Below are positions 18,435 to 57,573 of a stretch of DNA of 64,000 nucleotides, piece after piece (positions within the stretch are counted from its first letter, which is position 1; each line of letters starts with the position of its first letter). The position numbers were made by a program, and so were the translations under genes. The DNA comes from a virus (taxonomy: Duplodnaviria; Caudoviricetes). Location: the IMG/VR virus record IMGVR_UViG_2521172628_000001, positions 16,261-80,260 of that record. The stretch is one strand, 5' to 3'. The notes below the pieces were generated by a model. The model had not been told where the DNA came from and made no database searches. It worked only from the letters and a program-made list of their open reading frames with translations.

Positions 18435-18983
18435 TTACTGCCCCTTCGTGGCGAGGCTGTCCATGTACTGCGCGCGGACCCGGTTGTGTCGCGCATCTGC
18501 GAGCGCGTTGTGCACGCCGTCCGGCTGCTGGGGCAGTGTCGGATTGCCGAGCCGCTCGCACTCCTGCCGCAGGTCGTTGGTCCACATGGGGATGCCGTCC
18601 GGAAGGTCGATCATCGGACCGAAGAGCTGTGCAAGGGCGACATGGTCATAGGCGCCGTACCAGGCCCACAGTTGCGGGTCGGGCGTGGCCTGGATGAACT
18701 TGGCGACCTGGGTGGCGATGGTCGTCCGGTGCTTCACCACGGGGTCGGCGTAATGGAACAGCCAGCGCTTCGGCATGTGGATGCGGGCATCTCCGTGGCC
18801 CTTCGGGAGGGACGGGACGACGTTCTCCATCAGCCACTTGTGCTTCCGGATCTTGCGAACGGGCATGTCACGGTTCACCGCGTAGTACTCGCGGCCGTCC
18901 TCAGCAACCATGCCGATCGAGATGAGGTCGATGTGACGACCGTCCTCGATGAACTCGGTGTCGTAGAAGATGCGCATGGTCAC
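18435..18983 (-). CDS. DEDD 3'-5' exoribonuclease (Rv2179c/RNase AS-like, DUF5051)
   Basis: RIFYDTEF..LISIGMVAEDGREYYAV, AYDHV, HNALADAR. Confidence 0.85.
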   Translation of the reverse strand: MTMRIFYDTEFIEDGRHIDLISIGMVAEDGREYYAVNRDMPVRKIRKHKWLMENVVPSLPKGHGDARIHMPKRWLFHYADPVVKHRTTIATQVAKFIQATPDPQLWAWYGAYDHVALAQLFGPMIDLPDGIPMWTNDLRQECERLGNPTLPQQPDGVHNALADARHNRVRAQYMDSLATKGQ

Positions 18984-53233: not shown

Positions 53234-54186
53234 CAGGCGGCTGCTTTCTGCTGATACGGGTTGAGGGATTTGGTGGTGCCGTCGGGCTTGGCGATGCGGT
53301 AGGCGATGCGGCGTTCGCCGACGACGGCCCGCCGGCCGGTGCCGATGTGGTCGAGGACGACGCTCTTCGCGGCGGTCAGTTCGGCAGCAGCGGCCTTGGA
53401 GGCGGCCTGCGCGTTCTCGTAGCGGGCGGCGTCTTCGGCGGGGATCTCGACGTCGACGTCGTCGAAGTGGTCGGGCTGGACGCGGATCGTCTGGTAGGTG
53501 TCGTCCGCCGTGTCGATGGGCGGGCGCACTCCGTCGCGGACCTCTTCGAGGAACTTCACGGCCGCCTCGCGGAGGATCTTCGCCTCGGCCTCGTCGTAGT
53601 CGACGACGTATTCGCGGTAGTCCCAGCCGCCGATCAGCAGGGCGAAGCGGGTACGGCGCAGGCCCAGCGTGTCCATCTGCCAGATGACTTGGCAGCGGTA
53701 CCAGACCGGCACCCCGTCCTCGGCGCCGTCCGGCCCCCAGTCGTCGCCGAACGGGCTGGTCTTCACCTCCAGCAGTTCCTCAGCGCGCTCCGGGATCTCG
53801 AACTCGCCTGCGGGCTGCGGGTAGATGAGCCGGTCCGGGGTGGCCCGCTGCCAGGCACGCTCACGGTGCCGCCACGTGCCCGCGGGGGCGGCGAGCCGGC
53901 CGGGGTGCTCGTCCTGCCACTTGCCGGCGACCGCATCCTCCAGACGGCTCCCCCACTCGATCGCCGGGGTCATCTCGAACGGTGCGACCCGCAGCCCGGC
54001 CTTCTTGTGCCACAGCGTGAAGCGGGACATCCACGGGGAGAGGTTGACGGCGGCGGCGATCTCGGTGGCGGTGATGCACAGTCCGGCGCGGGCCTCGTCC
54101 CAGGCTTCCGAGCCGGGGGTGAGGTGGCCGAGCAAGACTCCCTCCGGCGCTGGATAGGGGTGACTGATGGTGCTTTCGGTGCTCAT
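53233..54186 (-). CDS. YqaJ/lambda-type exonuclease (RecE partner)
   Basis: ITATE, WGSRLE, ATPDR, LEVKT, YRCQVIWQM. Confidence 0.9.
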   Translation of the reverse strand: MSTESTISHPYPAPEGVLLGHLTPGSEAWDEARAGLCITATEIAAAVNLSPWMSRFTLWHKKAGLRVAPFEMTPAIEWGSRLEDAVAGKWQDEHPGRLAAPAGTWRHRERAWQRATPDRLIYPQPAGEFEIPERAEELLEVKTSPFGDDWGPDGAEDGVPVWYRCQVIWQMDTLGLRRTRFALLIGGWDYREYVVDYDEAEAKILREAAVKFLEEVRDGVRPPIDTADDTYQTIRVQPDHFDDVDVEIPAEDAARYENAQAASKAAAAELTAAKSVVLDHIGTGRRAVVGERRIAYRIAKPDGTTKSLNPYQQKAAA

Positions 54187-54388
54187 GTGACCTTCCAGAA
54201 GGTGTGCTGATGGGTGGCGGGCCGGCCCCGACCGGGGGGGGGGTGCGGGGCCGGCCGCCTCGGATGCCGCGGCGTGGGGGTCGCTGCGGCGGGCTGTGAA
54301 GTTGGGGTGGGCCCCGCCGCCGCAGGGGGGGCGTTGGCGGCGGGACCCGGCCGCGGCACGCTGGGGGGAAGTGCGCGCCAGCGGCGGT

Positions 54389-55498
54389 CTAGGTGAGCCG
54401 GACGGGCATGCACACGGCCCGGTAGGTGTCGTCGTCGACCGGCTCGATCAGCACCGGCTTGCGGGGCGTGAACAGCCAGATCCGCACCGGGCCCTCAACG
54501 GGGGCGAGCAGTGAGGCGAGGTAGTGCGGGTTGAAGGCGATGGCGAAGTCGTCGACGTCGGCGTCCGCGGCGAGTTCGCTGCTGCCGCGCTGGCCCGCAC
54601 CGCCGCCCCGGACCGTGGCCTTGCCTTCGGCGAAGGTGATGTTGATCGGGTTCTTGTCCTCGATGACCAGGGCGGCACGGTTCACTGCGGCCAGCAGCTC
54701 GGCGGTGTCGACGAGCGCTGAGCCTGCGGCGGCCTCCGGCTTGGGGAAGAAGCCTGCGATGTCGGGGAACTTGCCGGCGATGGTGCGGCTGGTCACCGTT
54801 AGGGTGTCGGTGGCCAGCGAGGCGACGGCCCCGTAGGAGTCGGCGAAGCCGAGCTGCACGGGGCGGCCGGCGGTCTGTTTGACGGTGGCCGCGAACTCTC
54901 CGGCGGGGATCAGCAGTTCGCCGGCCCGGTCGTTGTCGGGCTGCCACGGCAGGGTGCGGCGCACGATGCGGTACCGGTCCGAAGCCGACACGGTCAGCTG
55001 GTCGCCGTCGACGAGGACGTGCACGCCAGCGAAGCCGACGAGGCTGCCCACCGCCTCCTTCATCGGCAGGGTGCACTGGGAGGCATGCCCAACCGCGGCG
55101 GCCAGGAGATCCCCGTCGACGCTGCCCGCGGCCCCGGGGGCGTCGGGCAGGGCCGGGTAGTCGCTCACGGGCATCGCTGGCAGTGCGAACGTGGTGCCCG
55201 GCGCCGAGACGGTCACCTCGTGCTCGTCGGCGACCACGTCTACGAGGCCGGCCGGGAAGGTGGCGGACACGTCGGCGAGCAGCCGCCCGGACACCAGCGC
55301 GGTTCCCGGCTCCAGGATTTCCGCGTCCAGGACGGCCCGGGTGCTGGTCTCGTAGTCGAAGCCGGACAGGGTGACCGCGTCCTCGGTGGCTTCGATGAGG
55401 AGCCCGGCGAGGATCGGTGCGATCGGGTTGTTGGGGAGGCGGCGGTGTGCGCGGCGTGCCGCGTCCGCCAGCTCCTTCTGGTCGATGCGGAGTTTCAT
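54389..55498 (-). CDS. dnaN: DNA polymerase III beta sliding clamp (phage copy)
   Basis: PILAGLLI, LSGFDYETS, DYPALP, ASDRYR, IAFNPHYL, CMPVRL. Confidence 0.9.
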   Translation of the reverse strand: MKLRIDQKELADAARRAHRRLPNNPIAPILAGLLIEATEDAVTLSGFDYETSTRAVLDAEILEPGTALVSGRLLADVSATFPAGLVDVVADEHEVTVSAPGTTFALPAMPVSDYPALPDAPGAAGSVDGDLLAAAVGHASQCTLPMKEAVGSLVGFAGVHVLVDGDQLTVSASDRYRIVRRTLPWQPDNDRAGELLIPAGEFAATVKQTAGRPVQLGFADSYGAVASLATDTLTVTSRTIAGKFPDIAGFFPKPEAAAGSALVDTAELLAAVNRAALVIEDKNPINITFAEGKATVRGGGAGQRGSSELAADADVDDFAIAFNPHYLASLLAPVEGPVRIWLFTPRKPVLIEPVDDDTYRAVCMPVRLT

Positions 55499-55656
55499 GC
55501 CGCCGCCTCCCCGTCCTCGTCGTCGAAGGCGAACTGGTTGGGGTCGACGGCCGGCGTCTTCGGCTCGGGCATCGTCTCGACGGCGGGCCACGGCTTGGGC
55601 TGGCCGCTGCCGGTGACCGCGGTGTCGGGGAACAAGGCGAGCTGGTTGGCGTCCAT
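55495..55656 (-). CDS. 53-aa peptide with two clamp-binding-like motifs
   Basis: AGGAG RBS; MDANQLALFP...DPNQFAFDDE; ATGA overlap with dnaN; absent from ORF track. Confidence 0.7.
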   Translation of the reverse strand: MDANQLALFPDTAVTGSGQPKPWPAVETMPEPKTPAVDPNQFAFDDEDGEAAA

Positions 55657-55674
55657 GACGATCTCCTGGCGGGG

Positions 55675-56328
55675 TCAGGCGGCCGCGGCCGCGGAAGGGG
55701 TGGGGTCTGCCTGCTCGGCCGGCACGTCGTCCATGGCGCGGATCAGCTCGCAGCCGGTGCACTCACAGCGCGACCCGACCTGGCGGTGACCGTGGCCGGC
55801 GTGCAGCCGCCGCCCCTCGGCCAGAACCACCTCACGCAGTCGCCGGATCTCACCGTTCAGCTTCTCCACGAGCTGCACGCCCGGGTTCTTCGCGGCGTCT
55901 TCGAGGCTCTGGCGGTCGCCGACCATTCCGGACAGCAGCCACTTCGCGTTGTCCGCTGCCGCCTTCAGGTCACGCACCTGCTGGATCGGCGCCCTGCCGT
56001 CAACCGGGAGTTCCGAGGCGCGGTGTACGACCTCGTTGATAGGCCGGGCGGAGTTGCGCAGGATCACCTGCAGGTACAGGCCGGCGCGGGCGGTGATGTC
56101 ACCCTGCGCGGAGGCACGGGCCGCCGCGTACACGGAACGGTCATGCTTGACCTGGTCCTGCAGCAGGCTGCTGTGGTTGTTCTCGTGGCGGCGGGACTCG
56201 GCCCAGGCCCGGTCGACCTGGCGCAGCAACAGCTCCGTGTCAGACAGGCTGGTGACGTCCTCGCCGAAGCGGGCGTACTCGTCGCGGATCGCGGCAATAC
56301 GCTCAACGGCGGATGGTGTGGCGGTCAC
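55675..56328 (-). CDS. Hypothetical protein
   Basis: GGAGG RBS; C-terminal CECTGC. Confidence 0.7.
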   Translation of the reverse strand: MTATPSAVERIAAIRDEYARFGEDVTSLSDTELLLRQVDRAWAESRRHENNHSSLLQDQVKHDRSVYAAARASAQGDITARAGLYLQVILRNSARPINEVVHRASELPVDGRAPIQQVRDLKAAADNAKWLLSGMVGDRQSLEDAAKNPGVQLVEKLNGEIRRLREVVLAEGRRLHAGHGHRQVGSRCECTGCELIRAMDDVPAEQADPTPSAAAAA

Positions 56329-56396
56329 AGGATCCCTCCATGGGAAACTCGGTGGTGGACCCCTGCCGGCTGGACCCCGGCGGGGTTTCTTCTTGA

Positions 56397-56615
56397 TCAG
56401 ACGGCGCTGAGCACCGCGTCGCGGGCGCTGTCGTGCGCCGCATCGGAGGCCGTGCAGGCGAGACGCCCACCCCCGAGGTCGGTCCACTCCGAACTGACGG
56501 CCCAGTCGGCCGCCAGTTCCGGGGTGTCGAGGCGAAGCTCCCCGTCGTCGACGATGAGTCGCTGCTCGCACACGTCGCATTCGGCGACATGGCAGGTGAT
56601 CTGTCGGACAGGCAT
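56397..56615 (-). CDS. Small zinc-binding protein
   Basis: CDVC...C...H; AAGGAG RBS. Confidence 0.65.
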   Translation of the reverse strand: MPVRQITCHVAECDVCEQRLIVDDGELRLDTPELAADWAVSSEWTDLGGGRLACTASDAAHDSARDAVLSAV

Positions 56616-56678
56616 GTGAAGGCTCCTTGTCGGGTTGTCCGCCTGCCGGCCAGGAACGGCACCGGCCGGCAGGCGCGT

Positions 56679-57122
56679 TCAGGGGGTGGTGACCCGGCCG
56701 GGGTCAGTGACGGCCTTTGTCGGCCCGACGCCGAGTGCGGCCCACAGCGGCCGGACGTCGATCGGGGCGGTCGCCTGGTCGGCCGGGTGGCTGGTGTCCC
56801 GTTCCATCGCCGGCACGTCGATCCGGTTGGCGTTGGCTTCGGCGGCGAGGTACGGGGCGAGCCGCTCCCGCAGGTAGGCGATCTCGTCCTCGGCGGCCTG
56901 GAGGTCTTCGCGGCTGCCGGACAGGTCGATGGCGGCCTGGTCGAAGTCGGCTTCCAGTTGGTTGCGTTCGGCCTTCAGCTCGTCGACTTCGGTGGTCAGC
57001 TCGATGACCTTGCAGGTGGTTTCGTCGAGGTCGGCTTCGAGGCGGCGGATCTTCTGCACGAGCTGCCACGGGGTGAGGCCGCGATGCTTGGCCTTCGCCT
57101 TCACGTCCTGGAGGAGGCTCAC
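56679..57122 (-). CDS. Coiled-coil protein
   Basis: Long heptad region; GTGA coupling. Confidence 0.7.
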   Translation of the reverse strand: MSLLQDVKAKAKHRGLTPWQLVQKIRRLEADLDETTCKVIELTTEVDELKAERNQLEADFDQAAIDLSGSREDLQAAEDEIAYLRERLAPYLAAEANANRIDVPAMERDTSHPADQATAPIDVRPLWAALGVGPTKAVTDPGRVTTP

Positions 57123-57391
57123 TTCGCCGCCACCCCCCGCACGCTGGCCGCGGTGTCTCGGAGCAGCTTGGCCGCCTCCCGCTTGCCGTGGCCGCGGGCG
57201 TCGTTCCAGGTGACGATCGCGGCCTGCTCGATGCGGGCCAGGAGGGCTTCCTCGGCCCGCCACACGAGCAGCGACCGCCCGGTGTAGACGGGGGCGCCGT
57301 GGGCGGCGATGTTGAGGGCGGCGGCCCGCTGCACGTGCCGGGGCAGCCAGACCGGGCCGAGCCCGTGCGTCCCCAAGTCCTGGCCGGACAT
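57119..57391 (-). CDS. Hypothetical protein (TWNDARG motif)
   Basis: TGATG coupling. Confidence 0.6.
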   Translation of the reverse strand: MSGQDLGTHGLGPVWLPRHVQRAAALNIAAHGAPVYTGRSLLVWRAEEALLARIEQAAIVTWNDARGHGKREAAKLLRDTAASVRGVAAK

Positions 57392-57573
57392 CAGGCACCG
57401 CCTGTGAACTCGTCGGGCAGCTCCAGGAGCCCGGCTTCGATGGAGGCGATGACGTCCGGGTCCGTGATCCATGCGGGCACGATCCGGCGGGTGACGCCGA
57501 GGGCGGACAGCAGGCCCGGCAGGATCACCGGCTTCGCGTCGTCGGGCATCGCCGGCAGGTCGAGGACGGCCAT
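57391..57573 (-). CDS. Hypothetical protein
   Basis: TGATG coupling. Confidence 0.6.
   Translation of the reverse strand: MAVLDLPAMPDDAKPVILPGLLSALGVTRRIVPAWITDPDVIASIEAGLLELPDEFTGGA

Follow-up and report, generated by a model that had tools for sequence, protein, structure and literature searches.

The window, the whole 64,000-nucleotide stretch of DNA analysed here, belongs to a provirus record in IMG/VR (80 kb, 69% GC, CheckV completeness of 81%) of a Streptomyces-type prophage. The minus-strand early operon of this provirus points away from cro-like and anti-repressor-like genes. On the same strand, a short gene encoding a 53-residue micro-protein overlaps the start of a phage dnaN gene for a beta sliding clamp. 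The features of the locus are listed below; the two ribosome-binding sites and the stop/start overlap were read directly from the sequence.

55675..56328, minus strand: upstream gene, 217 aa, without a Pfam or PHROG family, 18 nt ahead of the micro-gene on the same strand
55663..55667, minus strand: AGGAG, ribosome-binding site of the micro-gene, 6 bases ahead of its ATG
55495..55656, minus strand: micro-protein gene (53 aa, type A) whose GC3 pattern is that of coding DNA
55630..55644, minus strand: motif 1, QLALF, residues 5-9, resembling a clamp-binding motif and invariant in 16/16 close homologues
55585..55629, minus strand: conserved middle module PDTAVTGSGQPKPWP, residues 10-24, invariant or nearly so across subfamily A
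55525..55536, minus strand: motif 2, QFAF, residues 41-44, with an acidic flank, recognised by the tail pattern Q-x(1-5)-[FL] plus a polar residue
55506..55510, minus strand: GGAGG, Shine-Dalgarno site of dnaN, within the final codons (E-A-A) of the micro-gene
55495..55498, minus strand: ATGA overlap of the micro-gene stop (TGA) with the dnaN start (ATG), pointing to translational coupling
54389..55498, minus strand: phage dnaN, beta sliding clamp, 369 aa (Pfam PF00712, PF02767 and PF02768; phrog_947, 5e-55)
54220..54348, no strand assigned: GC-rich inverted repeats in the 200-nt gap 3' of dnaN, with 92-100% complementarity between the arms (11 and 13 nt)

The micro-ORF is a real gene, as judged from its codon-position GC pattern, its AGGAG site and its ATGA overlap. 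The GC contents at codon positions 1, 2, and 3 were 0.69, 0.50, and 0.96, respectively, compared with 0.72, 0.50, and 0.92 for dnaN, and the ORF was called by a simple GC3-based gene caller among the 88 genes of the window. Homologues of its product are annotated as hypothetical proteins in two NCBI Streptomyces genomes. The ORF, its ribosome-binding site and its overlap with dnaN had all been proposed in a preliminary description of this DNA and were confirmed here. A junction of the form GAGGCGGC(A/G)TGA or GCCGCCTGATG recurs between the micro-gene and dnaN in related loci, and the conserved C-terminal EAA or DAA of the micro-protein is explained by the retention of this Shine-Dalgarno junction. 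The promoter scan of positions 54000-57500 detected no sigma-70-like promoter, and no Rfam match near the gathering score was obtained for the locus (best 18 bits versus a threshold of 49). The inverted repeats 3' of dnaN may serve as a terminator.

Known clamp-binding motifs (CBMs) follow a pentapeptide consensus, QL[SD]LF, or a hexapeptide consensus, QLxLx[LF] (excerpt of PMC11621423), and have acidic flanks (excerpts of PMC11621423 and PMC11139829). Motif 1 of the micro-protein fits the QL[SD]LF-type consensus, in agreement with the preliminary description, which had likened it to the motifs of clamp partners. It is located at the N terminus of a protein with a net charge of -8, in a region modeled by AF2 without secondary structure. 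The patterns Q..[LM]F and Q[LIV].L.[LF] occurred only twice among the 88 predicted proteins of the window (15,668 aa), once internally in a 1532-aa protein and once at the N terminus of the micro-protein, which is thus the sole protein of the window with a clamp-motif-like sequence at a terminus. The earlier reading of NQLALF and NQFAF joined by a Pro-rich linker of about 30 residues also holds: the two lie at residues 4-9 and 40-44, respectively, with a linker of 30 residues, and the micro-protein contains 8 Pro. Motif 2 (QFAF) lacks one residue relative to the CBM pentapeptide, and some relatives carry QLPLAF or QAEVLF instead. The micro-protein probably binds the pocket between domains II and III of some clamp.

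A word-indexed search of the protein database yielded 15 homologues of 36-53 aa, in which M1-D2, Q5 through Q19 (QLALFPDTAVTGSGQ), P22, W23, and P24 are invariant and the second motif, DP(D/N)Q(L/F/I)AF, is nearly conserved. A family profile searched against 1.84 billion representatives gave 55 matches at E<=1e-3. Of these, 50 were 39-86 aa long, 3 were 116-228 aa long and carried the module C-terminally, and 2 were very long proteins, regarded as low-complexity matches. Together, the database matches and the loci examined provided 86 distinct family sequences, with micro-proteins ranging from 38 to 86 residues; motif 1 was counted in a set of 84 of them. LF was present in 84/84 and [Q/E/M]xxLF or QxLF in 82/84, the two exceptions being EMTLF, which is clipped by the choice of start codon, and HPTLF.

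The family is divided into two types. In type A (41 sequences, including that of the window), motif 1 is followed by FPDTxVxG(T/S)G(R/Q)PxPWP, and in type B (45 sequences) by FPLxxLxTEGYAQPEPR and an acidic tail. No gap is needed to align the middle modules of the two types, one Gly is invariant family-wide, and the median net charge is -9, equal for both types. The tail pattern of motif 2 was found in 36/41 type A sequences versus 2/45 type B sequences, in the forms QLAF, QFAF, QLPLAF, QAEVLF, and QADELPF. Counted from the F of motif 1, the final residue of motif 2 was 33-44 residues away (median 35) in the 35 sequences measured. The word "bivalent" therefore fits the type A subfamily and not the whole family. 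Conservation of motif 1 holds family-wide, whereas that of motif 2 holds for type A only, and because about half of the family lacks motif 2, the blocking of both clamp pockets proposed in the preliminary description does not stand as a general mechanism.

The AF2 model of the micro-protein, built from a 26-sequence alignment, had a pLDDT of 66 and a pTM of 0.16 and contained no secondary structure, suggesting that the protein is probably intrinsically disordered. The micro-protein had no match in Pfam or PHROG and no usable match in the ESM Atlas. A tblastn search of the peptide against 50,697 records of isolated phages gave no match (the sole match had E=5). In five lysogen genomes, the family profile gave one significant match each, the prophage copy itself, and no resemblance to host proteins beyond this copy was seen (next best E>=0.59). 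The pN/pS ratio was about 1.0 over the conserved block, a value that is uninformative here given the GC3 of 96% and the saturation of the two subfamilies, and each invariant L, F, P, and G residue is encoded by 2-3 different codons.

Several family members depart from the common form. P0054 and P0065 (type B, 80 and 86 aa, respectively) contain an insert of about 45 residues, placed after the N-terminal module and ahead of the terminal EAEAA, which AF2 modeled with a pLDDT of about 90 as a small SH3/Tudor-like beta barrel. The insert had no Pfam match, and Foldseek returned only generic SH3/Tudor/KOW-like barrels with E>=0.025. The three long proteins with the module at the C-terminal end (P0068, P0069, and P0071) could be true fusions or gene-calling read-through; in two of them, an internal Met lies immediately ahead of the module.

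The micro-gene was always found next to a phage dnaN. A search led by the clamp recovered 13 loci, on 3 viral contigs and 10 genome contigs (nine Streptomyces and one Jiangellaceae MAG), with DnaN identities of 56-90%. An ORF of the family, 38-51 aa long and overlapping the dnaN start, was present in 13/13, and a GGAG-type site lay 5-9 nt ahead of its start, again in 13/13. As controls, we used 70 loci with chromosomal-type clamps (35-40% identity), one of which lacked upstream sequence; among the 69 testable loci, none had a short ORF that runs up to dnaN and carries Q..LF close to its own start. When the search was led by the peptide, 13 loci were obtained on viral contigs, and in all 10 that were new a DnaN homologue begins at the peptide stop; the same applied to 4/4 loci on metagenome contigs, where a DnaN homologue begins at the stop codon (one of these loci shares its contig with L096). 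With the window counted, the pair is present in 27/27 loci, and the genes overlap by 4 nt (ATGA or GTGA) or 1 nt (TGATG) in all of them, so that the expected conservation of the micro-gene upstream of prophage dnaN was borne out. Locus L005 (28% identity, partial match) lies outside these counts; the stretch examined there falls inside its clamp gene.

Phage clamps are not generally accompanied by the peptide, since the Arthrobacter phages BenchScraper and Colucci (DnaN 33-37% identical) have no ORF with an N-terminal QxxLF upstream of dnaN; a 133-aa helix-turn-helix protein and a 79-aa hypothetical protein are encoded there. The surroundings of the pair vary. Homologues of the 217-aa upstream gene, whose product has a Cys-rich C-terminal stretch, precede the micro-gene in L096, L097, and L010, and other genes replace it in L002, L014, L104, and L108. 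In nucleotide sequence, the window resembles L097 only in the micro-gene with the few bases ahead of it (85% over 189 nt) and in a short stretch at the start of the upstream gene, and the window and L006 have the micro-gene and dnaN in common but not the upstream gene. Recombination has thus exchanged the sequences on either side of the micro-gene, but the peptide and clamp genes have stayed neighbours throughout. The literature searched, exclusive of supplements, contained no account of a short CBM protein whose gene is coupled to a phage dnaN, and the pairing appears to be undescribed.

The phage DnaN is a sliding clamp, with all three clamp domains above the Pfam cut-off, and its nearest solved relatives are actinobacterial clamps (E 1e-47). 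It is 34% identical to a Streptomyces host clamp, which bears out the earlier statement that the phage clamp is diverged. The clamps paired with the peptide form at least four groups. Group 1, that of the window, consists of clamps 56-90% identical to the window clamp. Group 2, L096 and L104, shows 59% mutual identity and 32-33% identity to the window clamp, and L124 and L125 match it over the clamp part present on their short contigs. Group 3, L097, is 28% identical to the window clamp, and group 4, L108, is 32-33% identical to the window clamp and 38% to L097. All groups are 28-36% identical to the Streptomyces host clamp from a lysogen.

The peptides did not follow these groups: type A occurs with groups 1-3 and type B with groups 1, 2, and 4. 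Within the first 24 residues, 22 positions agree among the peptides of the window, L096, and L097, although their clamps are only 28-33% identical to one another, and no co-variation of motif positions 2-3 with clamp lineage was seen in a comparison by eye. The peptide does not co-evolve with its clamp. This conservation across diverged clamps indicates that the constraint on the peptide stems from something constant, such as the host clamp or a universal feature of the pocket.

Other genes were noted around or beside these clamps. A gene of about 210 aa lies 3' of dnaN in four loci (L096:3790-4431, L108:3731-4375, L014:5181-5810, and L010:5189-5836); its product starts with VITIADHTLSRL and has a below-cut-off match to the central clamp domain PF02767 (20 bits versus 27). 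It is missing in the window, where the 200-nt gap with GC-rich hairpins is found instead. In L002, a DEDD-type (RNase_T/epsilon-like) exonuclease gene (L002:4092-4892; 24 bits, at the Pfam cut-off) lies 3' of dnaN and replaces the half-clamp or precedes the YqaJ exonuclease. In 2/3 lysogen genomes searched (G003 and G002), a third dnaN copy of about 388 aa (L091 and L092, respectively) was found; this chromosomal paralogue, separate from the prophage clamp, shares 44-46% identity with the housekeeping clamp, and its C-terminal strand is altered (M-S-V-K).

The clamps were aligned to E. coli beta (K-12 record), and the residues that we take to form the pocket were read off this alignment. The (T/S)DRYR hairpin is retained in lineages 1 and 2 (DSYR in L014), and Pro242 is retained in lineage 1, with Leu or Ile in L096 and L104. 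The C-terminal M-P-V/I-R-L, including the gating Met, is retained in lineages 1 and 2 and in host clamps; in the window clamp, M-P-V-R-L aligns with E. coli M362-L366. Differences from host clamps were seen in all four phage lineages at positions 153-155 (E. coli numbering), and in many at positions 320 and 344. The gating Met is replaced by Leu in L097 and by Val in L108. The pocket is formed by the domain II hairpin and the C-terminal strand and is split by the gating Met, and a Met-to-Leu change at this position lowers affinity (excerpt of PMC11621423). As far as the alignment can tell, this pattern fits phage clamps that still bind motif-bearing partners. With the core pocket residues retained in lineages 1 and 2, nothing points clearly to a phage clamp that is immune to the peptide.

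Among the products of the provirus are proteins resembling DnaB and DnaC, together with RecT and a YqaJ-type exonuclease. When the 80-kb record was searched with profiles, no Pol III alpha, Pol A, or clamp-loader subunit was detected, so the phage clamp would have to be loaded and used by host proteins. Elsewhere in the window, amid apparent structural genes, a 182-aa gene at 18435-18983 encodes an Rv2179c-like 3'-5' exoribonuclease domain (Pfam E 5e-11).

Canonical clients of the clamp include Pol III alpha, Pol II and Pol IV, Hda, MutS and MutL, and delta. The micro-protein resembles them in its motif sequence, in the disordered terminal position of the motif, and in its acidic flanks (excerpts of PMC11621423 and PMC11139829). 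However, their motif tethers an enzyme, whereas the micro-protein consists of little more than the motif, a 15-residue module, and an acidic tail. The closest published case is the late activator MuC of phage Mu (Mor/C family), which carries CBMs near both ends: a near-consensus CBM at the N terminus (residues 2-6) and another near the C terminus, both needed for clamp binding (excerpt of PMC12867686). In the same excerpt, overexpressed MuC is lethal through titration of the clamp and is rescued by co-expressed hda and dnaN. In contrast to the micro-protein, MuC is described there as a folded DNA-binding transcription factor that uses the host clamp, and Mu as encoding no clamp of its own; the micro-protein is 38-86 residues long, predicted to be disordered, without a known family, and always coupled to a phage clamp gene. 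Identity of the micro-protein with a Mor/MuC activator was considered and rejected, as it has no Pfam or PHROG match, only 53 residues, and a model without a folded domain.

Twort Gp168, also small and phage-encoded, arrests host replication by acting on the clamp; it is portrayed, however, as a folded oligomer that fills the DNA channel and not the pocket (excerpt of PMC8565349). No sequence relation to it was seen, the micro-protein having no PHROG match. For the toxins SocB of Caulobacter and RipA of S. pneumoniae, suppressor mutations map to the hydrophobic pocket of the clamp, where both are thought to act (excerpt of PMC12795458). These differ in being chromosomal toxins of toxin-antitoxin systems, neutralised by an antitoxin or a protease adaptor, and in not being paired with a second clamp. 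A similar logic applies to griselimycin and the resistant clamp paralogue GriR of Streptomyces, in which a pocket-blocking peptide is encoded beside a spare, diverged dnaN (excerpt of PMC11621423). However, griselimycin, a cyclic depsipeptide antibiotic, is the non-ribosomal product of a biosynthetic cluster, whereas the micro-protein is ribosomal and phage-encoded.

The reading that we tentatively favour, with a chance approaching but short of even, is that the peptide acts as a disordered competitor for the clamp pocket and is made alongside a replacement clamp. The N-terminal QLALF would dock in the protein-binding pocket of a beta sliding clamp, and in type A motif 2, the weaker of the two and about 35 residues further along, could extend to the other pocket of that ring. 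Peptide and phage clamp would be translated from one mRNA, peptide first, and this shared mRNA with adjacent translation would fix the peptide-to-clamp ratio during lytic growth. The phage brings its own helicase and helicase loader but neither polymerase nor clamp loader, so its clamp would have to work with host Pol III. The peptide would then compete with the cell's clamp clients for pockets, chiefly on the host clamp, and the diverged phage clamp would meanwhile supply clamp capacity for phage DNA. We put the host clamp forward as the main target at slightly less than even odds. A competitor role is favoured because the peptide is conserved independently of the clamp and was never found without a spare clamp, and because phage and toxin precedents (MuC, SocB, and RipA) exist in which occupation of the pocket or titration of the clamp stops host replication.

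A stronger form of this reading would make the micro-gene and dnaN a portable "clamp replacement" cassette. The bivalent peptide would plug the pockets of actinobacterial host clamps and stop host replication and repair, a peptide-tolerant phage clamp would take over with the host polymerase, and the halves would be freely shuffled, the same peptide occurring with four clamp lineages. We consider this form somewhat unlikely. Several points also speak against the competitor reading itself. The core pocket is retained in lineages 1 and 2, so the peptide should bind their clamps too, and it is through this pocket that a phage clamp has to engage host Pol III and the clamp loader. About half of the family (type B) carries a single motif. 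Translationally coupled genes, moreover, more typically encode proteins that assemble with each other, and the pN/pS value, uninformative as it is, lends no support. Altogether, the interpretation in the preliminary description, that the peptide either blocks the host clamp or adapts the phage clamp, was partly supported.

Its second half is the main rival of the competitor reading. Here, the peptide would be an adaptor or gatekeeper on the phage's own clamp: motif 1 would dock, and the middle module or motif 2 would recruit another factor, or weak host clients would be kept off. Possible recruits are RNA polymerase for replication-coupled late transcription, as with MuC of Mu and gp33 of T4, or a replisome or recombination protein. 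The ATGA coupling and obligate adjacency fit such a role, as do the retained pocket of the phage clamps and the conservation of a module beyond the CBM, and the barrel inserted in two family members suggests an extra binding surface. MuC, whose N- and C-terminal CBMs couple late transcription to the clamp (excerpt of PMC12867686), provides a precedent. However, the type of peptide does not track the clamp lineage, types A and B each occurring with three lineages, and the micro-protein has no DNA-binding or other folded domain. This reading is unlikely in our view.

Both remaining explanations are less likely than an adaptor role. The peptide could be an acidic mimic, in which the tail and motif 2 imitate the C-terminal tip of SSB, or the tail imitates DNA; with the peptide anchored on the face of the clamp, the tail would then occlude the basic DNA channel and block loading. 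The net charge of -8 to -9 agrees with this explanation, and filling of the DNA channel is how Twort Gp168 inhibits the clamp (excerpt of PMC8565349). Some variants of motif 2, DELPFDEE and ETLPFDED, resemble the host SSB end ...SDEPPF; however, motif 2 is internal, with 9 residues after it, and an SSB tip of the form D-D-(D/E)-(I/L/P)-P-F at a free C terminus is lacking. Partners of the SSB tip generally need the terminal carboxylate. Moreover, a Gln stands ahead of the hydrophobic pair in 36/41 type A tails, as in a CBM, and most type B tails are without a hydrophobic motif, which makes mimicry quite improbable. Finally, the ORF could be a mere leader that delivers ribosomes to dnaN and encodes a functionless peptide, as the stop/start overlap, the dnaN Shine-Dalgarno site in its last codons, and the pN/pS near 1 would allow, but this is highly improbable given the varied codons of the invariant residues, an N terminus of 22 residues that is invariant in 16/16 close homologues, a motif at a fixed position, and a family recognisable as protein across 55 clusters at 50% identity.

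The existence of two subfamilies, the constant motif spacing in type A, and the decoupling of the peptide from clamp lineage emerged from this analysis as features of the family. The competitor reading, if true, would explain why temperate phages without a polymerase carry a clamp gene, and it would add a third phage route to clamp exploitation beside the channel plug of Twort Gp168 and the transcription coupling of Mu MuC. The clamp pocket is a validated actinobacterial antibiotic target, at which griselimycin acts. The 86 distinct short peptides would, on the same premise, be tuned to actinobacterial clamps and be ready material for studies of pocket selectivity, and the partner clamp of each peptide presumably works in its presence. 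If the cassette form holds, the pair would represent a naturally occurring clamp inhibitor, genetically encoded and lineage-selective, with griselimycin and GriR as its parallel.
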